A DNA stretch of 64,000 nt from an uncultured Gammaproteobacteria bacterium (GTDB lineage Bacteria; Patescibacteriota; Microgenomatia; Levybacterales; GWA1-39-11), in NCBI GenBank assembly GCA_964425075.1, contig CAYRKM010000001.1:395060-459059 (forward strand). Direction: 5' to 3'. Below, piece after piece: positions 505-49,881 of this stretch. The first letter of the stretch is position 1. Each line of letters starts with the position of its first letter. The notes under the pieces were generated by a model, which saw nothing but the letters and a program-made list of their open reading frames with translations, ran no database searches and was not told where the DNA came from. A program made the position numbers and the translations under genes.

Positions 505-2880
505 ATGAATAAATATCTTTATAACTATTATGATTTATTTAATAATACCCCTATCCAGTGGATAAGAGTAGGAGTCTTTTTAGCATTAGGAATTATTGTA
601 TATGTAAATATACACAATCCATCGGCTATCTTTTTCCTCATACCTCTTTACTTCATTTTAATTATCCAAGAACTTTTTATATTTACAAAACTTAATAACT
701 CGCTTCCACTAAATACTGTTAAAAATGAAAAAAATAATATTTTAGAAACTGTTGATTTTTCAACGCGTGCTTTATTGCAGCACAACAGTGTTTTGAATGG
801 ACTCAGAAAAATACAGGAAAAAAGTGAGGTAAAAGAATTAATTATTTTACTTGGAATGGACATACCAATTCAAGATATTTCTATTTCACAAGAGGAATTA
901 CTCAATAAAGCGTGGGAATTAGTGAATGAGTTAGATGGTAAATACATACATGCTATTGATATATATACTTCTTATTTACTTCTTGCAGATGAAAAAAACA
1001 AATTGTTGTTTGAGAAAGAAATAGAGAGAAAGGATATTATTTCAATCGTTTCATGGCTAAGGAAACAACATGGATATGATTCTCTCAAGTCTCACGAAAT
1101 GAATTTTGGAGGGAATGGAGTTTTTGACTCATTGGTGTACGGGTGGAGTGCAGAGCTTTCAAAATATGCTTTAAATTTTACAAATGAGTCAATTCGACGG
1201 GAAAATGTAAAGCCTATTGGAAGAGATAAGGAATACGACTTGCTGGTTACAGCTCTTAGTAAAAATTCATCAAGCAATGCGTTGCTCATAGGTGCTCCAG
1301 GAGTAGGGAAAACCTCACTTGTTGCACAACTTGCATTAGATTCGAATGCGGGTAAGCTTCCGTCTTTTGTATCACACAAAATTATTTTTCAACTTTTTGC
1401 TGAGCGACTTCTTGCAGGCGTAGAAAATCAAGGGGACATGGAAGCACGTTTTGTTTCTCTTTTTGAAGAACTATCTCATTCTGGGAATATTATTGTCTAT
1501 ATTCCAAATATTGAAAATATCCTCGGTGGAGGAGGAATGAATTTGGATTTATCAGGAATGCTTTCAGAATATTTAAAAAGCAACAGACTTACTATTATTG
1601 GAACTACAACAGAGGCTTTATATCAGACATATATTTATCCAAAACAAGAATTAAGGGAACTTTTTGAGAATGTGCAAGTTCAAGAGCCCGATAATGAAGT
1701 ATTACTATTTATGCTATTTGAGAAAAGAAAAGAGTTCATGAGTTTCAACGACGTTCAAATTTCGTACGATGCTCTAAAAGAAGCGCTTTCGCTTTCCTCT
1801 TCATATATTTCTGACGGTATTGCCCTTCCTGGAAGAGCAGTAAAGCTTCTTGAGGACGTTATCACTCATGCAAAAACCCATGGAGTAAAGACGATAAATA
1901 AAAGCGAAGTAAGGAATTTTGTAGAGCAAAAGGTGCACATTGTATTGAGCAAACCAACCACTGAAGAAAGCACTCAGCTTTTACATCTTGAAGAGGAAAT
2001 ACATAAAAAAATTGTTTCGCAGGAGGAGGCAGTAAAAGCAATTTCTGATGCCATGAGAAGAGTTAGAAGTGGCATGAAAGATGGAAATAGACCAATTGCA
2101 TCATTTCTTTTCTTGGGACCAACTGGTGTTGGAAAAACAGAAACCGCAAAAGCTCTTTCTTCGCTATATTTTGGCAGTGAGGACTCTATGCTTCGACTTG
2201 ATATGTCAGAATATCAAACACAGGATTCTATCGAGAGATTTTTGGGGTCAAGTAACCCTAATGAATTTGTTGATAATGTTGGTAATAAAATATTAAATAA
2301 TCCCTTCACGCTTATTCTTTTAGATGAATTTGAAAAAGCACACCCGAAAATTCTTGATTTGTTCCTTCAGATATTAGATGAAGGAAGGTTAACTGACAAC
2401 ACTGGTCGAACAATTTCTTTCACAAATGCAATAATTATCGCGACAAGTAATGCCGGAAGTGAATTAATAAGGGAAAAAATGGCGCATGCTCAAATTACAG
2501 AGGAAGAAAGAAAAAATCTAATCGATACAATTTTAAAGACCAATATTTTTAAGCCGGAACTAGTAAATAGGTTTGATGATGTAATTGTCTTTAAGCCACT
2601 TGTTCATGGAGACATCGTCTCAATTGCAGATCATTTCATGAAAGAAGTGGGGAATAAATTGTCTGAGCAGCATATTACATTAAGATACGACAAAGATGTT
2701 TTGGAATTTATTGCAAACGCTTCGTATAGCACAGAATTTGGTGCGCGTAACGTTAGGCGTTTTATAGAGCAGACGGTAGAAAATCAAATATCAACCAAGA
2801 TACTAGACCAAACACTGCCTCCGGGTGGTGTTGCAATTATTACCATTAATAGTGGTTCAATTGTTGTAACTACAAGTTGA
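505..2880 (+). CDS. Clp-type (ClpC/ClpB-like) double-AAA+ ATPase with N-terminal transmembrane anchor
   Basis: N-terminal segment has two hydrophobic helices, followed by a Clp_N-like repeat region. NBD1 Walker A is LIGAPGVGKTSL and NBD2 Walker A is FLGPTGVGKTETAKAL. NBD2 Walker B is ILLDEFEKAHP. NBD1 Walker B appears degenerate (IVYIPNIEN). Confidence 0.8.
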   Translation: MNKYLYNYYDLFNNTPIQWIRVGVFLALGIIVYVNIHNPSAIFFLIPLYFILIIQELFIFTKLNNSLPLNTVKNEKNNILETVDFSTRALLQHNSVLNGLRKIQEKSEVKELIILLGMDIPIQDISISQEELLNKAWELVNELDGKYIHAIDIYTSYLLLADEKNKLLFEKEIERKDIISIVSWLRKQHGYDSLKSHEMNFGGNGVFDSLVYGWSAELSKYALNFTNESIRRENVKPIGRDKEYDLLVTALSKNSSSNALLIGAPGVGKTSLVAQLALDSNAGKLPSFVSHKIIFQLFAERLLAGVENQGDMEARFVSLFEELSHSGNIIVYIPNIENILGGGGMNLDLSGMLSEYLKSNRLTIIGTTTEALYQTYIYPKQELRELFENVQVQEPDNEVLLFMLFEKRKEFMSFNDVQISYDALKEALSLSSSYISDGIALPGRAVKLLEDVITHAKTHGVKTINKSEVRNFVEQKVHIVLSKPTTEESTQLLHLEEEIHKKIVSQEEAVKAISDAMRRVRSGMKDGNRPIASFLFLGPTGVGKTETAKALSSLYFGSEDSMLRLDMSEYQTQDSIERFLGSSNPNEFVDNVGNKILNNPFTLILLDEFEKAHPKILDLFLQILDEGRLTDNTGRTISFTNAIIIATSNAGSELIREKMAHAQITEEERKNLIDTILKTNIFKPELVNRFDDVIVFKPLVHGDIVSIADHFMKEVGNKLSEQHITLRYDKDVLEFIANASYSTEFGARNVRRFIEQTVENQISTKILDQTLPPGGVAIITINSGSIVVTTS

Positions 2881-22294: not shown

Positions 22295-22852
22295 ATGAGT
22301 AGAAAACTTCAGAGAAATATCGGCAACGCTCTAATGGCGTTTTCTTTTTTAGGTTTGGTATTAATTTATTACCCAATAGCAAAAGAATATTTATTTCCTC
22401 CTACTTATACCCAAGAGGAGAAGAAAAGTCTTGGATTTTCTGTCGAAATTCCATCAATTAATGTTTTTTCAAAAGTAATCGAAAATGTAGACCCTTTCAA
22501 TCAGGCAGAATACATAGAGTCCCTTAAGGACGGAGTAGCACATGCGAAAGGCACTTCTTTGCCTGGTGAAAAAGGAACTATATATCTTTTTGCTCACTCC
22601 TCGGACGTACCATGGAGAATTACAAGATATAACACTGCATTTTTTAAATTAGGACAGGTGAAAAATGGGGAGGAAATACTAATTCAACACAAAGGCAGGG
22701 AGTATAAATATAAAGTGTTTACTCAAAAAACAGTTTGGCCAAGCGAAGTTAAATACCTAACTGAGTCTCAAGGTGACGTATTAATTCTTCAAACCTGTAC
22801 ACCAGTAGGAACTTCCTTTAAAAGACTTCTTGTATTTGCAAAACCCCTCTAG
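22295..22852 (+). CDS. Sortase-family transpeptidase
   Basis: N-terminal TM anchor. Candidate catalytic His in IYLFAHS. Active-site motif LILQTCTP (TLxTC). Conserved Arg in FKRLLVFA. Confidence 0.8.
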   Translation: MSRKLQRNIGNALMAFSFLGLVLIYYPIAKEYLFPPTYTQEEKKSLGFSVEIPSINVFSKVIENVDPFNQAEYIESLKDGVAHAKGTSLPGEKGTIYLFAHSSDVPWRITRYNTAFFKLGQVKNGEEILIQHKGREYKYKVFTQKTVWPSEVKYLTESQGDVLILQTCTPVGTSFKRLLVFAKPL

Positions 22853-30147: not shown

Positions 30148-32574
30148 ATGAAAAAAATTTCAAAGTCGTTTCAGATAAACGGTAAAACATTAACTTTTGA
30201 AACTGGTTCTTTGGCACAGCTTGCTACTTCTAGCGTGCTTGCAAAGATGGGGGACACTACAGTTCTTGCAACTGTTACCATGGGTCGAAACGACACTACT
30301 TTAGATTATTTTCCATTATCAGTTGACTACGTTGAGCGACTTTATGCTGGAGGAAAAATCAAAGGTTCACGTTGGGTAAAACGTGAAGGACGTCCTAGCG
30401 ACGACGCAGTTTTGACTGGAAGGTTAATTGACCGCTCCATTCGACCAATGTTTCCAAAGGCTCTTAAAAAGGATGTTCAGGTAATAGTAACTGTTCTATC
30501 AATTGATGGAATTAATGATCCTGCAATTCTATCCTTAAATGCAGTGTCGGCTGCACTTGCGATTTCAAAGATTCCATGGAATGGACCTGTTGCAGCTGTA
30601 AGAGTGGGAGACTTAAAGGCTGTTTCCACTGATGATTTGGTAATTTTCCCTGATGTAAATGAAGAATTAGATTTGGACTTTATATTAACTTCAAGTAGCA
30701 ACGGTAGCACCATTATGGTTGAGGCTGGTGCAAATCAGGTAAGCGAAGAGATTGCACTTAAGGCTGTAACTTTGGCGCGGGAAAATAATATAAAAATTAT
30801 TGAATTTATAAACGAGTTAGTAAAAGAAGTAGGAGAGAAGAAAATTGAACTTGCAGTAGATGAGGCAAAAGAAGAAATAATTGCGCTTGTAGAAAAGTCT
30901 TATAAGGATAAAATTACAGCAGTTCTTGAAGGTGAGTTGGGAGAAAATGTATCGGGCGACCTTCAGAAAATCGCAGACAGCATTATTGAACTTGAAGGCG
31001 AAAATGCTGACAGAAAGAAAATCTTTGATGCAGTTGACTATGTATTTAAGAAAATAATTCGTGAAAGAATTGTAAATGAAGAGAAAAGATTCGATGGGCG
31101 AAAGATTGATGAATTAAGAGAAATTACTGCACAGGCAGGATATATTCCACGCGTTCATGGTTCTGGTCTTTTCTCTCGTGGTCAAACCCAAGTACTTTCC
31201 ATTGCAACACTTGCTTCAACTGCATTAGGACAACTTATTGAAACATTGGATGGTGAGGAAACAAGTCTTTATATGCATCATTATTCTTTCCCACCATACT
31301 CGGTTGGAGAAACAGGAAGAATAGGCTCTCCTTCTAGAAGAGAGATTGGACATGGAGCGCTTGCTGAGCGTGCAATTGAGGCAGTTTTACCATCAGTTGA
31401 AGAATTCCCATATGCAATTAGGGTAGTGTCAGAGGTTTTGTCTTCAAATGGTTCAACATCAATGGCTTCAACTTGTGGCTCCACTCTTGCTCTTATGGAT
31501 GCGGGTGTTCCCATAAAGTCACCAGTTGCAGGAATTGCAATTGGACTAATGACTCTAAATGGTAAATACAAAATTTTAACTGACATAATTGGGCTTGAAG
31601 ATTTTGCAGGGGATATGGATTTTAAAGTTGCAGGAACTAAAGACGGAATTACTGCAATTCAACTAGACGTTAAATTAGATGCACTAACTGACGACATGAT
31701 AAAGGAAGTTTTTGACCGTGCAAAGAAAGCAAGACTAGATATTCTAAAGGTTATGAATAAAGCAATTGCTGAATCAAGAAAAGAGGTAAGCGTTTATGCT
31801 CCAAAGATTAAAATGATAAAAATCGATCCTGAAAAAATTGGTGGACTTATAGGTCCTGGAGGAAAGATGATAAAGAGTATTATTGCCCAAACCGGAGCAG
31901 AGGTTAATGTAGAAGATGATGGTTCGGTAAGTATCTCAGCGGTGGACGAGGAAGCAGTACAGAAAGCTACAGAATGGATTGAGGGACTTACTCATGACGT
32001 TACACCAGGTGAAACATATGACGGAACGGTGAAGAGACTTTTGGCATTTGGGGCATTTGTCGAATTCCTTCCCGGAAAAGAAGGAATGGTGCATGTAAGT
32101 GAAATGGCGACAGATTATGTAAAAGATCCCGCTGATGTTGTGCAGATTGGACAAACTGTAAAAGTAAGAGTAAAAGAAATTGATGATCAAGGAAGAGTAA
32201 ATCTTTCAATGCTTTTTGGAGAAGACGCAGAAAAGGGTGGAAATAAAGGTTCAGCTGGCGGAGGAGACCGCGGCCCACGAAGAGAAAGTGGACCTCGTTC
32301 ATATGGGGGCTCTCAAGATAGGGGACCAAGACGTGAAGGACCAGGCGGGGGAAGAAGTTTTGGTGGAGGCGGATTTAGCGGTGGAAGAAGTAGCAGTGGA
32401 CCCAGAAGAGATTTTGGAGGAGGTAGTAATCGTACTTCAGGAAGTTTTAGCGGTGGCGGACGTTCTTCAGGTGGGTTTGGTGGACCAAGAAGAAGTAGTG
32501 GTGGTCCAAGAAGATCTTCAACTGCTAATGCTCCAACATACCAAGGCGGCAAACGTGATGAGTGGAGAGGCTAA
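30148..32574 (+). CDS. pnp: Polyribonucleotide nucleotidyltransferase (PNPase) with ~110-aa RGG/SGG-rich C-terminal tail
   Basis: Two RNase PH domains, KH domain and S1 domain, followed by GGDRGPRRE.../RSFGGGGFSGGRSS low-complexity extension. Confidence 0.9.
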   Translation: MKKISKSFQINGKTLTFETGSLAQLATSSVLAKMGDTTVLATVTMGRNDTTLDYFPLSVDYVERLYAGGKIKGSRWVKREGRPSDDAVLTGRLIDRSIRPMFPKALKKDVQVIVTVLSIDGINDPAILSLNAVSAALAISKIPWNGPVAAVRVGDLKAVSTDDLVIFPDVNEELDLDFILTSSSNGSTIMVEAGANQVSEEIALKAVTLARENNIKIIEFINELVKEVGEKKIELAVDEAKEEIIALVEKSYKDKITAVLEGELGENVSGDLQKIADSIIELEGENADRKKIFDAVDYVFKKIIRERIVNEEKRFDGRKIDELREITAQAGYIPRVHGSGLFSRGQTQVLSIATLASTALGQLIETLDGEETSLYMHHYSFPPYSVGETGRIGSPSRREIGHGALAERAIEAVLPSVEEFPYAIRVVSEVLSSNGSTSMASTCGSTLALMDAGVPIKSPVAGIAIGLMTLNGKYKILTDIIGLEDFAGDMDFKVAGTKDGITAIQLDVKLDALTDDMIKEVFDRAKKARLDILKVMNKAIAESRKEVSVYAPKIKMIKIDPEKIGGLIGPGGKMIKSIIAQTGAEVNVEDDGSVSISAVDEEAVQKATEWIEGLTHDVTPGETYDGTVKRLLAFGAFVEFLPGKEGMVHVSEMATDYVKDPADVVQIGQTVKVRVKEIDDQGRVNLSMLFGEDAEKGGNKGSAGGGDRGPRRESGPRSYGGSQDRGPRREGPGGGRSFGGGGFSGGRSSSGPRRDFGGGSNRTSGSFSGGGRSSGGFGGPRRSSGGPRRSSTANAPTYQGGKRDEWRG

Positions 32575-32576
32575 AT

Positions 32577-33401
32577 CTAGAGTAATTCTACGGCTTTCTC
32601 CATAACTCGATTGAATTTTTTATTAAAATCCCGAATTGCATCCCAATATGGTTCTCTTGTTTCCTGATTCATAATAAAACCCCTATTGTATTCTACTTGA
32701 ATTGCATAAACTGTATTTCCATGGTTAAGGTTAGGATTTCCAAAATATTGAGTGATATGACCGCCTTTATATGAGGTATTGATCTCAATTTCGGAAGTTT
32801 TTAATCCAAACTCGGAGGCTATAAAGTTTCTCACACTCTGAATAAATTCAGCCGGAGAGGCATTGAATCCAATTGTAGGATCTATGTCTCCCGTGTGAGG
32901 TAGTCCAAAGTTTGACAATATAAATTTTGGCATAGTTCTTGTTTCATTAGGTAAAAAACGGTCACGTTTTCCGGTATTTTTATCATAATCTCCCGTGTCG
33001 TGATGGTCCCAAAGGATCACTTTTTCAAATCCAAATTCCTTCGAAGCAGCAATCAGGTTTTTGATTTCCTCATAATATGGATCGTGATGGGTTGAGAGCC
33101 AGAACTCTTTCTCCTCATCAGTTAAGTTTTGTCCGTCTTTCCAAATTTGATTTCCATGAAAGTCCTGAAGCTTAAAAAGGTTCTTATCACGGGGTTGATT
33201 TAGACTCCCCAGTCCACGGATTACTTTTGACTTCAAATTTCCCAATGCATGGGGATGAAAAGCAGTATCTGCAGTGAATTTATCACTAAATTCACCTATG
33301 AACCATTCATCCAATGCCACTCTATCAATAAGATGGGCAAAGTCATCAGAGTCATGCGGCGCGGAAGTTATAAGAGGTAGCTTCATATCCAGATTATACA
33401 A
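32577..33401 (-). CDS. Putative metal-dependent hydrolase, N-formylglutamate-amidohydrolase-like (tentative)
   Basis: His/Asp-rich motifs (SAPHDSDD, WDHHDTGDYD, LPHTGDID). Family assignment is by eye only. Confidence 0.3.
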   Translation of the reverse strand: MYNLDMKLPLITSAPHDSDDFAHLIDRVALDEWFIGEFSDKFTADTAFHPHALGNLKSKVIRGLGSLNQPRDKNLFKLQDFHGNQIWKDGQNLTDEEKEFWLSTHHDPYYEEIKNLIAASKEFGFEKVILWDHHDTGDYDKNTGKRDRFLPNETRTMPKFILSNFGLPHTGDIDPTIGFNASPAEFIQSVRNFIASEFGLKTSEIEINTSYKGGHITQYFGNPNLNHGNTVYAIQVEYNRGFIMNQETREPYWDAIRDFNKKFNRVMEKAVELL

Positions 33402-33464: not shown

Positions 33465-34553
33465 ATGGATCCTGCTCAACAAAATCCGGACTCCGCGTCC
33501 CAAATTCAGAAACTTGAAGAATCAGTAAATACAGCTAATTTACCTCCTGAGCTTTTGCAGAATGCAAAAGCAATGATAGCAAGATTAAAGATAGTTTCGG
33601 GTCAAACAAGTTTTTACACAGAGTATGACACAATTTCTCGTTATATTAATTGGATTGCTTCTCTGCCGTGGGGAAAATACTCACCCGACGTATTGGATCT
33701 TAATCACGCTCGACAAGTTTTGGAAAAAAATCACTATGGCTTAAATGACGTTAAAGAAAAAATTCTTGAATACTTGGCCATTATGATAAACACAAAACAA
33801 CAGGCTGGGGATAAAGCCCAGGATATAATTGCTCGTGCTCCAATCATTTCTCTTGTTGGTCTTGCAGGTGTGGGTAAAACGACCATAGCCTATTCAATTG
33901 CCGAAGCTTTGGGTCGAAAAATTGAGAGAATTCCATTTGGAGGTATGGGAAGCGCTTCACAGCTTCGTGGCAAGTCTAGACTTTATTCAGATTCAGAACC
34001 AGGGTTAGTAGTAAAAGCTCTGAGGCGTGCTGCAACCTCCAACCCAGTCATTTTATTGGACGAGATAGATAGAGTATCATCTGAAGCACGCTCTGACATA
34101 ATGGGTGTTTTGGTGGAACTTTTGGATCCGACGCAAAACAAAGCATTTCTTGATCACTTTATTGACTATCCTGTTGACCTCTCGCAAGTTCTTTTTATTG
34201 CAACAAGTAATAACACTAAGGATATCTCAACAGCTGTAGTTGATAGGCTTGAGATTATTCAAATGCCATCTTATTCTGATGAAGAAAAAATTGTAATAGG
34301 CAAAAATTTTATCATGCCCCAGGTTCTTGCCGAGAGTGGACTAACAACAAATGATTTTGGAATTAGTGATGATGTTTGGCCAGAAACAATTGTAAGGCCA
34401 CTTGGATACGACCCTGGAATTAGAAGTCTTCAGCGAATAATTCAAGGAATGGTAAGAAAAACTGTATATTTTATGCTCATGGGTAAAATTCCACGAGGTC
34501 AGAAATTTATGATAAATGCGGAAAACGTAAAAACCTTTGTTTCAGCGTGGTAA
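33465..34553 (+). CDS. Lon-like AAA+ ATPase module lacking LAN and protease domains
   Basis: LPWGKYS...HYGL.DVKE.ILEYLA, Walker A GLAGVGKTT and Walker B VILLDEIDRVSS are collinear with the Lon ATPase domain. The protein ends after the alpha-subdomain (362 aa). Confidence 0.65.
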   Translation: MDPAQQNPDSASQIQKLEESVNTANLPPELLQNAKAMIARLKIVSGQTSFYTEYDTISRYINWIASLPWGKYSPDVLDLNHARQVLEKNHYGLNDVKEKILEYLAIMINTKQQAGDKAQDIIARAPIISLVGLAGVGKTTIAYSIAEALGRKIERIPFGGMGSASQLRGKSRLYSDSEPGLVVKALRRAATSNPVILLDEIDRVSSEARSDIMGVLVELLDPTQNKAFLDHFIDYPVDLSQVLFIATSNNTKDISTAVVDRLEIIQMPSYSDEEKIVIGKNFIMPQVLAESGLTTNDFGISDDVWPETIVRPLGYDPGIRSLQRIIQGMVRKTVYFMLMGKIPRGQKFMINAENVKTFVSAW

Positions 34554-34591: not shown

Positions 34592-36274
34592 ATGATGGAA
34601 CAAATGGAAAATTCTTCTAATTCGGTTTCGATAGTTCCCATCGGCGGCATAGGTACAGTTACAAAGAATATGTACCTTTATATTTATGGCAATGAGATTC
34701 TTATTGTGGATTGTGGAATGGGTTTTCCAGATCCCTCAACTCCGGGTGTCGACTTTCTGGTTCCCGATATTTCTTATCTAAAAAAACTAACCGCTGAAGG
34801 TAAGAAGAAAATTGTTGGACTTCTTTTAACTCACGGACATGAGGATCATATTGGCGGAGTGCCTTTTGTTCTTGATCAATTGCCTCAATTTCCAATTTAT
34901 GCAACACCGCTCACTGCAGCATTCGTAAATGAAAAACTTAAAGATTTTGGGCTTAATCAGAGGGCAAAGGATGTTGAATTTAAGAAGGATATGAAGATTG
35001 GCAGCTTTACTGTTCGCTTCCTTCACATTACTCATTCGGTTCTTGATACCTCTAATATTTTTATAAAAACCCCGGCGGGTAACTTTTATCACGGGAGTGA
35101 TTATAAATTTGATCTCACACCAGTTGATGGACATTTATCAGATCTTCATGGTATTGCTGGCACAGCCCAAGAAGGAGTTTTGTGCATGCTATCAGATTGT
35201 CTTGGAGCAGAGCGTCAAGGGCATTCTGAATCAGAAAGCAAGATAACTGATAGTTTCGAAAAAGAATTTAGGAGAAGTAAAGGAAAAATATTTATTTCAA
35301 CTTATTCTTCAAATATTTCAAGAATGAATCAAGCAATTGAGGTGGCATTAAAGTTTAACCGCAAGATTTGTTTTATGGGGCGTTCATTCACAAAATCTCG
35401 GGATGTTGGAAAACAGCTTTCATACATGAAATATCCGCCCAACTCAGAGATAAAACCACCTCAAGTAAAAAGTATGGATCCTTCAAAAGTTATGATATTA
35501 ATTCCCGGCAATCAAGGCCAAGAAACTTCAGCTATGGTTCGTGTTGCTTCGGATAATGATCGTGATATTAAAATTGATAGAAATGACACGGTTATTTTTT
35601 CTTCTGATCCGATTCCAGGAAATGAATTAAATGTTTATAACCTCATTGATACTATAGCCAAAAAAGGAGCACGCATTGTGCATTCTGACACAAATCCTGA
35701 TTTTCATGTTTCGGGGCATGGTTCCCAAAACGACATAAAGCTGCTTGCTTCCCTAACGACTCCAAAATTTACACTTCCAATTGGTGGAACCTATCGTCAC
35801 ATGGTGGCGTTTAAAGAATTGATGCGGGAGATGGGTTATCAGGATAACAATATTATTTTGCCTGAAAATGGGCAGGAAATTGTGTTTACAGGAGGAAGTT
35901 ACAAGTTTGGAATCAAGGTTCCATTATCTACTGTGTATGTTGATCAGATAACTGGTGAGGAGATGGAGAAATTTGTACTTATGGATAGGCAAAAAATTGC
36001 AAAGGAGGGAATAATGATAATTATTGCCGAAGTTGAAACAGAAAGTGGAAGAATTGTAGGCACGCCCGATATTCTTTCTCGTGGATTTGTTTTTCCTGAA
36101 AAAGACCAATTTGCCAAAAAACTAGCAGAGCAATTAGTGAAAGATATGGGCGAGAAAAGTGCAAAAGCTACTCATTTTGGATACTATAGAAAAATCATAC
36201 AGCAAAATGCCGAAGGGCTTTTATATAGAATGAAGCGAGAGCCATTAGTAATACCTGTCATTGTTGAAGTTTAG
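34592..36274 (+). CDS. rnj: Ribonuclease J (metallo-beta-lactamase/beta-CASP)
   Basis: HGHEDHIGG motif, beta-CASP region and C-terminal domain. Confidence 0.85.
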   Translation: MMEQMENSSNSVSIVPIGGIGTVTKNMYLYIYGNEILIVDCGMGFPDPSTPGVDFLVPDISYLKKLTAEGKKKIVGLLLTHGHEDHIGGVPFVLDQLPQFPIYATPLTAAFVNEKLKDFGLNQRAKDVEFKKDMKIGSFTVRFLHITHSVLDTSNIFIKTPAGNFYHGSDYKFDLTPVDGHLSDLHGIAGTAQEGVLCMLSDCLGAERQGHSESESKITDSFEKEFRRSKGKIFISTYSSNISRMNQAIEVALKFNRKICFMGRSFTKSRDVGKQLSYMKYPPNSEIKPPQVKSMDPSKVMILIPGNQGQETSAMVRVASDNDRDIKIDRNDTVIFSSDPIPGNELNVYNLIDTIAKKGARIVHSDTNPDFHVSGHGSQNDIKLLASLTTPKFTLPIGGTYRHMVAFKELMREMGYQDNNIILPENGQEIVFTGGSYKFGIKVPLSTVYVDQITGEEMEKFVLMDRQKIAKEGIMIIIAEVETESGRIVGTPDILSRGFVFPEKDQFAKKLAEQLVKDMGEKSAKATHFGYYRKIIQQNAEGLLYRMKREPLVIPVIVEV

Positions 36275-37218
36275 TATTCTCTTCCCTCATAGATCTCTTT
36301 TTTTACGAATTCATATAGTTTGGCTGCTTTTTCCTGGCCAATAAATTCGACATACCCTTCCAAAAACTCTTCTCTACCCCTAGTAAACTGTTCACCAGCA
36401 ACAGCTAGTAATTCTGTCAATTTGATTCCACCGTACATGATTCTTATTTGAGTGGATGAAGGTCTAGGTTTGTTTCTTGTTTGTGTTAGTTCAAAACCCG
36501 AAGAACTTTCTTGTTGAGCAACATATTGATTTAGTTTCTCAGTTTTAAAAATAGACTGAAGTTGTCTTTCGTCTTCAATTTCTAAAACTTGCATTACTTC
36601 CCTTTCAAGACTATTTAATCGAGGGTCTATTGCGCGATGAACAAATTCATGGACAATATTTTGTTTTGCCTTGTCTTGTTCCAAAAAGGATTGTCCAAGT
36701 GATTTTTTATTAAAAAATATTAATCCACTAGAATTATCTGCGGACCTACAATAAAGTCCTCCTTTATTTTTCATTTGGGGAGTTCTTAGGTCCCAATCTG
36801 CCAAGGAAACAGCAAGCGGCAGAAGTCTTCCACTTGTTTCTCTTGGTTGATAAAAAAATGGAGGAAGCACATCAAGAGCTTTGGACAACGCTTTGATGCG
36901 AGGCGCATCCCAGTGGACCCTATGATTTTTTGTAAACTCTATGCTGTCATTTGTACTCGTAAAACTTAAATTTGTATCTGGAGATATTAATATTATTCCA
37001 TATTTGTTTTCAACTTCAGTTTTCATTTGATCAGCATCCATTCCAAAAGTGCCGGTTTCTAATCCTTCTACAAGACCTCTGCTAATAGAGGGTCTGTTGG
37101 TATGAGCATTTATAACATCTATTCCCGTAAGACCACCTACTATAATTCCTCCCACTGCGCTTAAAAAACGCCTTCTACTCATTGTTGATGTTGTGTATTT
37201 TGGGGCCTCTTCTGACAT
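36271..37218 (-). CDS. Tat-signal secreted HExxH zinc metallopeptidase-like protein
   Basis: Twin-arginine motif SRRRFLSAVGG followed by a hydrophobic region. HEFVH zinc-binding motif. Confidence 0.5.
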   Translation of the reverse strand: MSEEAPKYTTSTMSRRRFLSAVGGIIVGGLTGIDVINAHTNRPSISRGLVEGLETGTFGMDADQMKTEVENKYGIILISPDTNLSFTSTNDSIEFTKNHRVHWDAPRIKALSKALDVLPPFFYQPRETSGRLLPLAVSLADWDLRTPQMKNKGGLYCRSADNSSGLIFFNKKSLGQSFLEQDKAKQNIVHEFVHRAIDPRLNSLEREVMQVLEIEDERQLQSIFKTEKLNQYVAQQESSSGFELTQTRNKPRPSSTQIRIMYGGIKLTELLAVAGEQFTRGREEFLEGYVEFIGQEKAAKLYEFVKKEIYEGREY

Positions 37219-42604: not shown

Positions 42605-43543
42605 ATGAAAAAAATTGTTGTTATTGGAGGAGGAACGGGGGTCTTTACTGTCCTGACAGGACTTAAAGAATACGATTATGAGTTGTCTGCAATTGTGTCG
42701 ATGGCAGATGATGGAGGCTCCACTGGCGTTTTAAGAGAGGAATTTGGAACACTTCCGGCTGGGGATATCAGACGTGCATTAATTGCATTATCCGACTCTA
42801 ATGAAAAAGTACTATCCGATCTTTTTAATTATCGTTTTGGAGAAGCAACATCTCTAAAGGGGCACAGTTTGGGTAATCTTTTATTAACTGCACTTGAGAA
42901 AATCACAGGAAATTTTGCTTCCGCAGTAGATGAAGCAGTACGAATTTTAAATGTTAAGGGGAACGTAATTCCTGTAACTCTTTCAAATACTAAGCTTTAT
43001 GCAGAGCTTGAAAATGGAACAGTGGTTGAGGGAGAGTCTAATATTGACATACCAAAACACGATGGAAATATAAAAATAAAAAACGTATTTCTAAAACCAC
43101 AAGTTGCAGCAAATCCTAAGGCCGTCAAGGCAATAGAAGAGGCTGATGCAGTGATTTTGGGACCTGGAGATGTGTACACCTCAGTATTGCCAAACATTAT
43201 TATTCCAGGAATTGCAGAAGCAATTAAAAAAACTAAAGCAAAAGTTATTTATAACGTAAATATTATGACCAAATTTGGAGAAACAAATGACTTTAAGGCA
43301 TCTGACTTTATAAAAAAGATGGAGGAGTATTTAGGAGAAGGAGTTATTGATTATGTGACTGTAAATACCCAAAAGCCTAAGGGTGAGATTGTTGAGAGAT
43401 ATAAAAGAGAGCATGTGGAATTTGTTGAGGATGATTTGGGGAAAGATAAGCGAGTAGTGGAAGGTGACTTTTTGCGACGAGGGATGTTTTTGCGTCATGA
43501 CCCAGAGAAATTGGCACAAGGCTTATCAAAGATAATCAAGTAG
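42605..43543 (+). CDS. YvcK/CofD-family (UPF0052) protein
   Basis: KIVVIGGGTG ... AIVSMADDGGSTGVLREEFGTLPAGDIRRALIALS. Confidence 0.8.
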   Translation: MKKIVVIGGGTGVFTVLTGLKEYDYELSAIVSMADDGGSTGVLREEFGTLPAGDIRRALIALSDSNEKVLSDLFNYRFGEATSLKGHSLGNLLLTALEKITGNFASAVDEAVRILNVKGNVIPVTLSNTKLYAELENGTVVEGESNIDIPKHDGNIKIKNVFLKPQVAANPKAVKAIEEADAVILGPGDVYTSVLPNIIIPGIAEAIKKTKAKVIYNVNIMTKFGETNDFKASDFIKKMEEYLGEGVIDYVTVNTQKPKGEIVERYKREHVEFVEDDLGKDKRVVEGDFLRRGMFLRHDPEKLAQGLSKIIK

Positions 43544-46880: not shown

Positions 46881-49103
46881 TTGTATCGAATTGTTAGCAA
46901 TATGTTAAAACTGCCTCCCATTCCATTTATAAATGGTGGAAAGAAAGAAGATTTTTTTCTTTCCCTACTTTTCCGTCAAGACAAAATTTCTGCAATTCTT
47001 TTTAGAGAAGAGCAAAAAACCTTGGTAATTTTAGGAAGCAGCGAGGAAAAGATTGACCTTGAAGAAGCTGCAATAGAGGATTTGGTTATTGCCTCAGACA
47101 CTGTTATTTCCAAAATCGAAATGAGTTTGCCAGAAGGGGCAAATCTTGAAAAAACAATTTTTTCAGTCCCCTACTCCTGGGTTGAGGAAGGAAAGATAAA
47201 AGAAGAAAGACTTGCCCAGCTTAAAAAAATAAGTGTCGAATTAGCTCTTGTTCCAATGGGTTTTATAGTTTCAATTGAGGCTATTATTGCTTTTCTTCAG
47301 AAAAAAGAAGGCGTGCCGATAAATGGAATTTTTGTGGAAATTTCAGAAACATTTTTATATGTTTACCTTGTAAGAAGTGGAAATATTTTAGAAGTAAAAC
47401 AAGGGAAGATTGATGATTCAGCCGAAAAAACTGTTGAAAATTTGCTTTCCTCCGTCATAAAATTTGAAGTTTTACCATCAAAAATTATTCTTTTAAATAA
47501 TAAGGAAGCAGAAACCATTCAGCAGAAATTTTTGTCTCATCACTGGACTAAGCAGCTTCCTTTTCAGCATCTTCCCCAGGTTGCAATGCTTGAAAAAGGA
47601 TTTGAGAATGAAGCAATCATTCATGGGGTTGCAAGCCAAATGGGAGCAGCAATAAAGGGTGAGCTGGCAGTTTCAAGATCGGAAGAAAAGGGAGGCGAAG
47701 AAAAAGAAGTAAGCGCTACGGAAGATTCGTTCGGTTTTTCCCAAGACGTTGATATAGCAAAGAAATCAACTCCACTCGTTGAAGATAAAGAAATTGACGA
47801 GCCTGATTTAATGGATGGAAACCAGGAAAAGGATATTGCAATGGACGAGGGGATAGAAGAAAGCTATGTTCCTCCGGAAAAGAAAAGTCCTTCTGGCGGG
47901 ATTTTTGCAGTTATTTTGTCGTTCATTCCAAAGAATTTATCATTACCCAAACTTTCATTTGCTAAAGGTGGGAGATCGTATCTTATTCCGCTTGCTGCGG
48001 CAGTTATTGTAATTGCAATAACAGCTTTTTATTACATGTTTCTTATAAAGGCTGATGTAATTGTTTTTACGGGTCAAAAAGAATTTAACGACACGCTCAA
48101 TATAACTCTTACAACAAATGGAACCTCATCATTTGACGAGAAGGTTTTGCGTATAGAAACAGTAACAGAGGAAGTGAGTGGAAGTGAAACGCAAGAAGTT
48201 ACCGGAAAGAAAGAAACAGGTGAAAAGGCAAAAGGAGAGGTAACAATATTCAACAAAACTGATAAAAAACAAACAATAGAAAAGGGAACAACGATAACCT
48301 CATCTAATAATTTAGAATTTACCTTAAGCGACACAGTTGAGATCGCATCCACTAGTTCTTTTGCAACAGAATTTTCTAATAAAAAAGCCAAGGTGGAGGC
48401 TTCAAAATTTGGAAAGGAATACAATTTACCATCAAACACCAATTTTACTGTTACAAGCTTCACAACTTCACAAGTTTTTGCGAAAAATGACACTGCTTTT
48501 GCAGGAGGTACTAAAGAAGAAATCCAGGTGGTGTCAGAGAAAGATATGGACTCATTGTCTGAGAGCCTATCTGACAAGCTTTTAAGTGATGCAAAAAAGA
48601 AAGCTTCAGCAAAAGTTGCAGATGGTCAGGAATTATTGCCAGTTGTGTTATCCACTAAATTTGAAGAGAAAAAATTTGATAAAAAAGAAGATCAGGAAGC
48701 AAAAAATCTTAAATTAACTGCAACAATAACCTTCACGCTTGGATCTTACAAAAAAGAAGAATTGGATGCATTTATTGCAAGTTCTGACTCATTTGATGTT
48801 CCTGACGATTTTAAATTATCTGATCAAGAGTCAGAGTTAAGGTTATCAAATGTTTCTCAGAAAGGAAAAGATATCACTGCAAAGTTGTCATTTAATGCAA
48901 TCTATAAGCCTCAGCTTGAGGTTTCAAATATTCCTCAGGAAATAAAAGGAAAAAGTATAAAAACAGCGGAGGGAAAACTTAGGGAAATTTCAGGAATTTC
49001 AGATGTGAAGATTTTGATTCACAATGGAATTCCACTTCTCCCAAGCCTTCTCCCATTTAGAAAGGAGAATATAACTCTTGAAATAAAAGCTGAAGAATTA
49101 TAA
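46881..49103 (+). CDS. Large bitopic membrane protein, hypothetical (start uncertain: TTG 46881 or ATG 46902)
   Basis: ~330-aa cytoplasmic N-domain, acidic linker, TM helices (~aa 340-395) and ~340-aa K/E/T-rich extracytoplasmic domain. Lies upstream of the second sortase. Confidence 0.6.
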   Translation: MYRIVSNMLKLPPIPFINGGKKEDFFLSLLFRQDKISAILFREEQKTLVILGSSEEKIDLEEAAIEDLVIASDTVISKIEMSLPEGANLEKTIFSVPYSWVEEGKIKEERLAQLKKISVELALVPMGFIVSIEAIIAFLQKKEGVPINGIFVEISETFLYVYLVRSGNILEVKQGKIDDSAEKTVENLLSSVIKFEVLPSKIILLNNKEAETIQQKFLSHHWTKQLPFQHLPQVAMLEKGFENEAIIHGVASQMGAAIKGELAVSRSEEKGGEEKEVSATEDSFGFSQDVDIAKKSTPLVEDKEIDEPDLMDGNQEKDIAMDEGIEESYVPPEKKSPSGGIFAVILSFIPKNLSLPKLSFAKGGRSYLIPLAAAVIVIAITAFYYMFLIKADVIVFTGQKEFNDTLNITLTTNGTSSFDEKVLRIETVTEEVSGSETQEVTGKKETGEKAKGEVTIFNKTDKKQTIEKGTTITSSNNLEFTLSDTVEIASTSSFATEFSNKKAKVEASKFGKEYNLPSNTNFTVTSFTTSQVFAKNDTAFAGGTKEEIQVVSEKDMDSLSESLSDKLLSDAKKKASAKVADGQELLPVVLSTKFEEKKFDKKEDQEAKNLKLTATITFTLGSYKKEELDAFIASSDSFDVPDDFKLSDQESELRLSNVSQKGKDITAKLSFNAIYKPQLEVSNIPQEIKGKSIKTAEGKLREISGISDVKILIHNGIPLLPSLLPFRKENITLEIKAEEL

Positions 49104-49122: not shown

Positions 49123-49881
49123 TTGAATACTATTATGTCCAAAACATATACATATGGAAAAGCTCGTAGTGTGCTTAAAAAGCGCTTAAAAAGGTTCGTG
49201 GGTATATCAACCCTGGTTCTTGGAGTCGTGGTTGTGCTTTATTTTTTCTTTCCCGTTATTTCTTACCATTTATTTCTCTCTTCGGAATTTTCTGCAGATG
49301 ATATAGAATCCCCCTTGCCAAAGAGATATGTATTACAGGGGAATAATAATATTACTTCAATAGTAGCTTCAAGTTTTAGTGATGTAGCTTATGATTTTAC
49401 GGACGCTAGAAATTGGTTCCCTCAAGTAGAAGCGAAAGGGGTTACAGTTAAAAAAGTAAGCGAGTACGAGCTATCAATTCCTTCTCAAAAGATAATGAAT
49501 GCAAAAGTTTCTGGGGATGATTTTGATCTTTCAAAGCATTTGGTCCAATATTTTTCAACGTCAAAAAACCCCATAGATAAGGGAACATCTGTAATTTTTG
49601 GTCATTCTACTCTACCTCAATGGTTTGATCCTACTAATTACAATACAATTTTTGCAAAGCTTCATACAATAAAAGTAGGGGATGAAATAATTCTTACGGT
49701 AAATAACTTGAATTTTTCTTATAAAATATTTTCAACCAATATTACTGATCCTTCTGACCCAAATATTTTCTCTCAAAGCTTTGATAATAGCTATATTACT
49801 CTTGTTACATGTACTCCACCCGGTACGGTGTGGAAAAGACTTATTGTGAGGGCAAGTCTTACTGGTCTTGCAAAAAATTGA
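49123..49881 (+). CDS. Sortase-family transpeptidase (second copy)
   Basis: TM anchor, catalytic His in VIFGHS, TLVTCTP active-site motif, Arg in WKRLIVRA. Confidence 0.8.
   Translation: MNTIMSKTYTYGKARSVLKKRLKRFVGISTLVLGVVVVLYFFFPVISYHLFLSSEFSADDIESPLPKRYVLQGNNNITSIVASSFSDVAYDFTDARNWFPQVEAKGVTVKKVSEYELSIPSQKIMNAKVSGDDFDLSKHLVQYFSTSKNPIDKGTSVIFGHSTLPQWFDPTNYNTIFAKLHTIKVGDEIILTVNNLNFSYKIFSTNITDPSDPNIFSQSFDNSYITLVTCTPPGTVWKRLIVRASLTGLAKN

Follow-up and report, generated by a model that had tools for sequence, protein, structure and literature searches.

A conserved family of Lon-derived AAA+ ATPases without protease and N-terminal domains in Microgenomates and related Patescibacteria

Results

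Domain make-up of the protein

The 64-kb stretch of DNA analyzed here (the window) carries on its forward strand, at positions 33465-34553, an open reading frame with an ATG start and a TAA stop codon (34551-34553), the 362-residue product of which consists of a three-helix bundle, an alpha/beta AAA+ domain and a Lon lid and ends where the protease domain of Lon would start. It is very probable that this gene is a functional LonA derivative with an intact ATPase that has neither the protease domain nor the N-terminal domain. The features of the locus are as follows.

30148..32574, forward strand: PNPase gene (pnp), upstream in the conserved block (Pfam, synteny)
33465..34553, forward strand: gene for the stand-alone LonA-type AAA+ ATPase (ORF, HMMs, AF2, Foldseek, dN/dS)
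33492..33662, forward strand: three-helix bundle, residues 10-66, equivalent to the NTD-3H segment from about residue 241 of the Lon of Meiothermus taiwanensis, MtaLon (DSSP on the AF2 model, phmmer alignment)
33663..33683, forward strand: LPWGKYS motif, residues 67-73, common to LonA (motif position, presence in LonA representatives)
33858..33884, forward strand: Walker A motif GLAGVGKTT, residues 132-140 (sequence comparison)
33966..34004, forward strand: pore loop 1, RGKSRLYSDSEPG, residues 168-180 (comparison with LonA RGHRRTY[IV]GAMPG)
34047..34070, forward strand: Walker B motif VILLDEID, residues 195-202 (conservation of D199 and E200)
34077..34106, forward strand: pore-loop-2 region SSEARSDIMG, residues 205-214 (comparison with LonA)
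34203..34211, forward strand: sensor-1 T-S-N with Asn249 (conservation of N249)
34242..34247, forward strand: trans-acting Arg finger, D260-R261 (conservation of R261)
34278..34484, forward strand: Lon-type lid (small alpha-helical) subdomain, residues 272-340 (Pfam Lon_lid, AF2 helices)
34422..34424, forward strand: sensor-2 Arg320, inside the lid (conservation of R320)
34524..34550, forward strand: C-terminal tail NVKTFVSAW with the terminal Trp362 (family comparison; tail pLDDT about 52)
34592..36274, forward strand: RNase J gene, rnj (Pfam RNase_J_b_CASP, RNase_J_C)

The original prediction, made from the sequence alone, had described a 362-residue reading frame containing LPWGKYS and the two Walker motifs, and all of these are present exactly as it stated. 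Pfam identified the AAA domain (PF00004) at residues 130-266 (E 1.8e-18) and Lon_lid (PF22667) at residues 290-341 (E 3.6e-4) of the protein; Lon_C (PF05362) and LON_substr_bdg (PF02190) were absent from the same search, Lon_C even at E ≤ 1. The model TIGR00763 "lon" (the endopeptidase La equivalog of NCBIfam) matched with an E-value of 1e-94 over profile positions 249-564 of 795, and its score of 318.6 bits stayed below the cutoff of 608.05 because two thirds of the model are missing from the protein. Likewise, NF008053 scored 232, which is under its curated threshold of 891.

In a phmmer comparison with all PDB chains, residues 9-357 aligned with residues 241-576 of the 793-residue MtaLon (E 2.8e-70), in agreement with the earlier claim that the protein is collinear with the Lon AAA+ core and ends after the lid; the strong matches were LonA without exception. 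An AF2 monomer model built from 46 family members (pLDDT 82.9, pTM 0.79) has bundle helices, as assigned by DSSP, at residues 10-23, 28-43 and 50-66 with a pLDDT of about 90, and lid helices at residues 272-290, 304-313 and 317-338, followed by a tail of low confidence that is probably flexible. P68 and W69 of the LPWGKYS motif are invariant across the 46 members. The best 50 Foldseek matches of the model in the PDB were all LonA chains (probability 1.0), and the best non-Lon HMM matches, to ClpA (4e-08) and RuvB (2.6e-03), were much weaker. The HMMs and the fold comparison thus place the protein in LonA and not in a different AAA+ clade.

Loss of the flanking domains

The short length of the protein first raised the suspicion that the gene could be a pseudogene or a canonical lon that had suffered truncation, a frameshift or misassembly; nothing further speaks for such an origin. 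A minus-strand gene of the FGase family lies 63 nt upstream and the RNase J gene 38 nt downstream, and therefore there is no room for a frameshifted N- or C-terminal domain. HMMs for Lon_C and Lon-N were built from 55 canonical LonA representatives and run against every stop-to-stop fragment in the six frames of the window and of 92 related loci (1.25 Mb), where they gave no match at E ≤ 1 and the family HMM gave 93. As a positive control, the Lon_C HMM detected 112 of 150 Lon representatives; it found none among 13 distant stand-alone proteins and 121 close members, and the Lon-N HMM found none among the 121 family proteins. A tblastn search for Lon_C across the window returned no genuine remnant of a protease domain, its weak match at 42845-43018 (E 0.23) being a CofD-family protein and not a peptidase.

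The absence of the Ser-Lys protease domain and of the N-terminal substrate-binding domain, as originally predicted, is therefore borne out both by Pfam and by the six-frame search, and no Lon_C could be restored by a frameshift. In addition, at least 536 species genomes encode proteins of this architecture, and hundreds of clusters of such proteins stem from independent assemblies; the start (MD..AQ) and the end (..W-stop) of the family are conserved, with the start codon kept. Among orthologs, dN/dS ranges from 0.04 to 0.20 (pairs with unsaturated dS), which shows that the gene is under strong purifying selection. With genes adjoining on both sides and without a remnant of Lon_C or Lon-N in any frame, a frameshift or truncation is ruled out, and an artefact or pseudogene is excluded.

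Distribution and phylogeny of the family

A search of 5.8 billion proteins yielded 7,688 matches, and the best 120 of these (64-93% identity, 324-477 residues), which come from Levybacteria, Woesebacteria and other Patescibacteria, all have AAA and Lon_lid and no Lon_C. When one genome per GTDB species was scanned, at least 536 genomes, mainly of Microgenomates, were found to encode a relative; the best 80 of them belong to Levy-, Gottesman-, Curtiss-, Beckwith- and Cerribacteria and to other Microgenomates. Many MAG records among the relatives bear plainly wrong organism names. In current annotations the relatives carry the label "AAA family ATPase" or, in those of JGI, "ATP-dependent Lon protease". 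The alignment of 46 members, which share 65-93% identity, has about 100 columns without any variation.

When 1.84 billion cluster representatives were searched exhaustively with HMMER, three kinds of protein were returned: stand-alone forms that are 41-51% identical to the query and include proteins of Dojkabacteria, canonical LonA proteins of about 770-850 residues with 37-43% identity, and proteins of about 1,000-1,700 residues in which the query has two or three matches. The last are Lon proteases that combine two or three AAA+lid modules in tandem with one Lon_C. In a neighbor-joining tree of 181 individual Lon AAA modules (250 columns), the genuine stand-alone proteins all fall into one clade (79/100 bootstrap) and the tandem modules lie elsewhere. 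The 13 distant representatives of 50%-identity clusters in the stand-alone clade are all without Lon_C, and the canonical Lons closest to the clade come from diverse taxa, among them Mesoplasma and Deinococcus. The clade thus goes back to one ancient loss of the two flanking domains followed by vertical inheritance, and no surviving intermediate was found among the 181 modules.

Several candidates for a source or an intermediate were rejected. The tandem-AAA Lons, which would make the protein a split multi-ring Lon, ranked first in the search owing to their summed module scores; their identity per module is about 41%, like that of ordinary LonA, and their modules lie in other clades. P0191, which looked like the sister of the clade and a possible intermediate lacking the N-domain with an intact Lon_C, is a transcript fragment of the eukaryote Leptophrys vorax, and its grouping received 0/100 bootstrap support. 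Fused partner domains seemed to be present at the C terminus of P0153 and P0156 and at the N terminus of P0142, P0130, P0143 and P0138 and proved to be only low-complexity linkers rich in S, N, Q and P. None of the clade members checked is fused to a peptidase domain.

ATPase residues and remodeled loops

The catalytic residues of the motor are those of LonA. Lys138 of Walker A, Asp199-Glu200 of Walker B, Asn249 of sensor 1, the trans Arg finger R261 and Arg320 of sensor 2 are each present in 13/13 stand-alone representatives and in 66/66 LonA representatives, and all of them, R261 included, are also invariant in the 46-member alignment. Since an invariant trans Arg finger makes sense only in an oligomer, we infer that the protein would assemble as a ring. 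It would also hydrolyze ATP.

In contrast to these residues, the surrounding loops differ from LonA. In Walker A, the G-P-P-G of LonA corresponds to G-[LVI]-[AVQ]-G in the family, so that both prolines of LonA (found in 61/66 and 66/66 representatives, respectively) are replaced. Pore loop 1 reads G-K-[ST]-R-[LMF]-x-[PS]-D-[AS]-E-P-G in the family, with [KQ]SR-hydrophobic-x-[PS]-D-[AS]-E as another form of the signature, as against G-H-R-R-T-Y-[IV]-G-A-M-P-G in LonA. Position 174 in this loop is Tyr in 65 of the 66 LonA representatives, whereas the 121 close members have Phe (52), Tyr (41), Ser (13), Met (5), Asn (4), Thr (4), His (1) or Gln (1); the residue is thus aromatic in 93/121 close members and in only three of the 13 wider representatives. 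The window protein has Tyr174 in the context RLYSD, as compared with RTY[IV]G in LonA. R172, E178, P179 and G180 are invariant in the 121 close members and D176 is found in 116 of them, and at the level of these alignments Asp176 and Glu178 are shown to be newly fixed relative to LonA. In pore loop 2, R-G-D-P of LonA is changed to R-[AS]-D-I, position 212 being Pro in 64/66 LonA representatives and Ile or Val in the family. A further family feature is the terminal Trp, which is present in 115 of the 121 close members, where the chain ends in ...F-V-[SP]-x-Trp-COOH; W362 is invariant in the 46-member alignment, and an aromatic last residue is frequent in the wider clade.

Genomic context

In Microgenomates, the gene is part of the block nusA-infB-orf-rpsO-pnp-AAA-rnj-(x)-ftsK-HTH_25. 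Among the best 80 of the at least 536 genomes, rnj follows downstream in 71 and pnp lies upstream in 65. The gap between the AAA gene and rnj has a median of 39 nt and is at most 100 nt in 48 of the 71 cases; it often measures 1-12 nt or is replaced by an overlap of 4-7 nt. The 38-nt gap in the window contains no terminator-like site on the forward strand. Because of the short or overlapping gaps and the lack of such a site, co-transcription with RNase J is likely. In four Microgenomates loci with the AAA gene (L047, L049, L065 and L071), rnj is not adjacent. The PNPase of the window has an S1 domain that ends at residue 688 of 808 and is followed by a 120-residue C-terminal tail rich in Gly and Arg, and in the neighboring PNPases the tails are long and rich in Arg and have conserved motifs at their ends.

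The linkage to rnj is specific to the Microgenomates lineage, and rnj adjoins the gene in none of the six contexts from the wider clade (L005/6, L007/8, L089, L090, L091 and L092). One wider-clade locus has the order rpsO-pnp...AAA...ftsK without rnj, and other loci have unrelated neighbors, in one case M16 and M23 peptidases. In two lineages of the wider clade the gene lies beside groES-groEL, and this proximity in distant members is a hint at proteostasis. Heat-shock control by CIRCE/HrcA was considered and rejected, as no CIRCE operator was found at up to 3 mismatches either in the window or in locus L008. The promoter scan gave no result above the shuffled expectation. Membership in a defence system was likewise dismissed; PADLOC matched generic AAA only, with DolB as the best match (1.3e-10) and no BrxL.

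The original prediction had noted that no obvious partner is adjacent and that rnj comes next, and indeed there is no Lon_C in the 64-kb window. Four observations go beyond it, namely the remodeling of the pore loop, the Trp at the C terminus, the wide occurrence of the family and the arrangement with rnj as a conserved, tightly coupled operon.

Discussion

The gene had been proposed to be either half of a split Lon, with the protease domain encoded separately, or a Lon-derived chaperone or ATPase. Our evidence leans towards the second option, because the surrounding ±7-10 kb are free of Lon_C in 93 loci and no clade member has a protease domain. As for function, we favor, with a probability of roughly 0.5, an autonomous, non-proteolytic ring ATPase of Lon descent that remodels proteins. 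According to this reading, a LonA ancestor would have lost its N-terminal substrate-recognition domain and its C-terminal Ser-Lys protease domain and kept the motor, which would form a ring driven by ATP hydrolysis. The altered, partly acidic pore loop (R172, the hydrophobic residue 173, D176 and E178) could then grip client proteins and remodel them without degradation, in a chaperone or disassembly activity that might be akin to the protease-independent chaperone function of Lon. Such a function has long been attributed to Lon and is debated. The remodeling ATPase is favored because the motor is intact, the 93 loci offer no peptidase partner, no partner domains are fused and distant members have a chaperonin neighborhood. 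The relaxed pore-loop Tyr suggests that classical hand-over-hand threading of polypeptides may be weakened or lost, and therefore a different mode of client engagement is favored over it; given the fixed acidic residues, clients would possibly be engaged through basic segments. It should be considered that the protease domain of Lon supplies much of the stability of the hexamer, so that a ring without it is not guaranteed. Two further observations speak against the remodeling reading, namely that no CIRCE lies upstream and that the coupling in Microgenomates is to an RNase and not to chaperone genes.

This coupling raises the question of a role in RNA decay, in which the protein would join RNase J, and perhaps also PNPase, in a minimal degradosome of Microgenomates as its ATP-consuming subunit, remodeling or regulating these enzymes or their ribonucleoprotein substrates. 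The position of the gene between pnp and rnj fits such a role, as do the gaps of a few nucleotides and the overlaps, which suggest translational coupling, and the window's intergenic region free of a terminator-like site; the Arg-rich tails of PNPase could moreover fit a pore loop that has become acidic through D176 and E178. On the other hand, rnj is never adjacent in the six wider-clade contexts, the four exceptional Microgenomates loci have no neighboring rnj, the conservation of the block may be mere vertical inheritance within one class, and the acidic pore residues speak against threading of RNA itself. We therefore regard an accessory role in RNA decay as conceivable but unlikely. Considerably more speculative is an elaborate form of it, in which the motor would be co-translated with RNase J, Asp176 and Glu178 in the pore of six subunits would engage the Arg-rich tail of PNPase, and the C-terminal Trp would serve for docking; we think this improbable, and if true it would mean a degradosome built on an AAA+ ring in place of RNase E or Y and a DEAD-box helicase.

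The terminal Trp also bears on the split-protease option, according to which the ATPase ring would dock through its Trp-bearing tail on a separately encoded peptidase, either an orphan Lon_C/S16 domain or another self-compartmentalized enzyme. Other AAA+ unfoldases carry C-terminal docking motifs, which the low-pLDDT tail with its Trp in 115/121 members may resemble. The protein ends exactly at the junction between the ATPase and the protease of Lon, and the natural tandem-AAA Lons show that a Lon ring can operate with further AAA modules of the Lon type placed in series. The stand-alone clade, however, has closer relatives than these tandem modules, neither the ±7-10 kb around the 93 loci nor the 64-kb window contain a Lon_C, the lack of a peptidase-fused clade member means that there is no Rosetta-stone evidence, and conservation is relaxed at the pore-loop Tyr, on which translocation into a protease chamber depends. 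The list given for a closed Microgenomates genome (PMC7143001) names secreted peptidases only and is silent on S16 either way. Taken together, we consider a split protease quite doubtful.

Comparison with known systems places the protein next to LonA (MEROPS S16; MtaLon 7ypj/4ypl, E. coli Lon, human LONP1), with which it shares 33-43% identity, the bundle, the AAA+ domain with a pre-sensor-1 hairpin and the lid; the Walker A and B, sensor-1, Arg finger, sensor-2 and LPW motifs of the two are identical. LonA has the N-terminal substrate-binding domain and the Ser-Lys protease domain, and the stand-alone protein has neither; LonA also differs in Walker A and in pore loops 1 and 2, and the terminal Trp belongs to the stand-alone family. 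With no protease domain, no N-domain and a score below the curated cutoff, the protein departs from LonA in three defining respects, and therefore the name "Lon protease" does not fit it.

The closest structural counterparts are constructs of Lon. The MtaLon "AAAP" constructs 4ypl/6wqh have the same N-terminal boundary, the alignment starting from about residue 241-246, and the fragment 235-584 of E. coli Lon (6n2i, 344 residues) matches at both boundaries, its residues 6-338 aligning with 9-358 of the query. Yet these constructs are laboratory truncations of a protease, whereas the stand-alone protein occurs in nature, is under selection and has pore loops that have diverged. Motors related to protease ATPases and acting without proteolysis are known from RuvB (of the same HCLR clade), from ClpX without ClpP and from protease-inactive FtsH homologues; the concept is the same, but none of these is known to derive from Lon.

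To our knowledge, LonB, LonC and the Lon-like proteases, including BrxL of BREX, all keep Lon_C, and like the stand-alone family they are Lon relatives with an altered domain composition. LonB has a membrane insertion in its ATPase and LonC a degenerate ATPase (PMC9569914). LonC, with its dead ATPase and live protease, is the converse of the stand-alone family, in which the ATPase is intact and the protease absent. The tandem-AAA Lons (e.g., P0121 of Dependentiae, with three AAA+lid modules and Lon_C) contain Lon-type modules without the Lon N-domain, as in the query, but these are fused in one chain with the protease and mostly retain an aromatic pore-loop residue. They show that Lon motors can occur in addition to the one next to the protease.

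A full-text literature search gave no description of a stand-alone Lon ATPase family or of Lon in Patescibacteria, and the family is apparently undescribed. As far as we know, Lon is viewed as a single-chain ATPase-protease that cannot be divided, and its recognized subfamilies A, B and C all keep the protease domain. The Microgenomates class and related ultra-small Patescibacteria appear to keep only the motor of Lon, with the ATPase site untouched and the substrate-gripping loop rewritten. The family thus represents a natural experiment on what a Lon motor does without proteolysis and on how pore loops are re-tuned, it is widespread and due for re-annotation since the label "ATP-dependent Lon protease" is wrong, and it bears on the control of protein and RNA quality in genome-reduced, host-dependent bacteria.

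The N-terminus of the stand-alone Lon ATPases and the tail of the upstream PNPase

The stand-alone Lon ATPases share a conserved extreme N-terminus, M-D-x-x-A-Q (window 33465-33490). In some lineages, low-complexity linkers rich in Gln and Pro, 50 to 330 aa long, separate it from the three-helix bundle (proteins P0130, P0138, P0142, P0143, and P0292). These sequences suggest that a disordered spacer tethers a short motif at the N-terminus.

The PNPase encoded upstream of the AAA gene ends in an extension of its own:

32212-32571, Gly/Arg-rich tail of 120 aa after the S1 domain (PNPase residues 689-808)

Within the best 80 of at least 536 genomes with a relative of the AAA gene (L009-L088), 65 Microgenomates loci yielded 43 PNPases with a tail of at least 50 aa, and in 28 of these 43 tails Gly and Arg make up at least 35% of the residues. 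At their C-terminal ends the tails carry short conserved motifs, namely KKPSY(Q/E)GG(R/K)RDDWR(G/S), APFDS(L/M)RP..RR, or EHPL(A/S)xQF(R/K)RER...RKPxY, which look like protein- or RNA-interaction motifs.

Genes within and around the conserved block

Two genes on the opposite strand lie within the nusA-infB-rpsO-pnp-AAA-rnj-ftsK block:

32577-33401, minus strand, N-formylglutamate amidohydrolase-family gene between pnp and the AAA gene (PF05013, 2.8e-12)
36271-37218, minus strand, ORF of 315 aa between rnj and ftsK

The amidohydrolase-family gene occupies the pnp/AAA position in only 5 of the 80 related genomes and was therefore inserted into this otherwise conserved gene order recently. The 315-aa ORF gave no Pfam match, and none of the 80 related loci contains an equivalent of it. 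Because it combines an N-terminal twin-arginine-like signal (SRRRFLSAVGG) with an HExxH motif (HEFVH), both read by eye only, it may encode a secreted zinc metallopeptidase.

Many Microgenomates/Patescibacteria contigs among L009-L088 bear wrong organism names in the public genome collection, including 'uncultured Gammaproteobacteria', 'Pseudomonadales', 'Rhodocyclaceae', and 'Bathyarchaeia archaeon'. These misnamed metagenome-assembled contigs still carry the Microgenomates-specific block.

Elsewhere in the window, the following genes were identified:

505-2880, plus strand, ClpB/ClpC-like double-AAA+ chaperone of 791 aa (AAA, AAA_lid_9, AAA_2, and ClpB_D2-small)
22295-22852, plus strand, second sortase
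46881-49103, plus strand, protein of 740 aa with a weak Baseplate_J-like match (3.3e-07)
49123-49881, plus strand, sortase, adjoining the 740-aa protein gene

The organism thus has at least one further AAA+ unfoldase; no ClpP, HslV, FtsH, or Lon_C gene was found within the 64-kb window. The Baseplate_J-like/sortase locus may be related to the cell surface or to a contractile system.

Lon proteases with tandem AAA+ modules

The protein searches also recovered Lons in which two or three tandem Lon-type AAA+ and lid modules precede a single Lon_C, without a Lon N-domain (P0121-P0140 and others). Among the best 150 cluster representatives at 50% identity, 31 belong to this group, and Lon_C was found in 27 of the 31. 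Modules of the same protein are 27-60% identical (median 46%), the sole exception being P0125 with 99%, and therefore reflect old duplications rather than assembly collapses. At locus L093, one such gene is followed after 183 nt by a second Lon gene:

L093:57-3398, three-module Lon P0121 (Dependentiae, MFC1854773.1), middle module without pore loop 1
L093:3581-6355, second Lon of 924 aa

No description of multi-ring Lons was found in the literature searched, and their novelty may exceed that of the stand-alone Lon ATPase itself.
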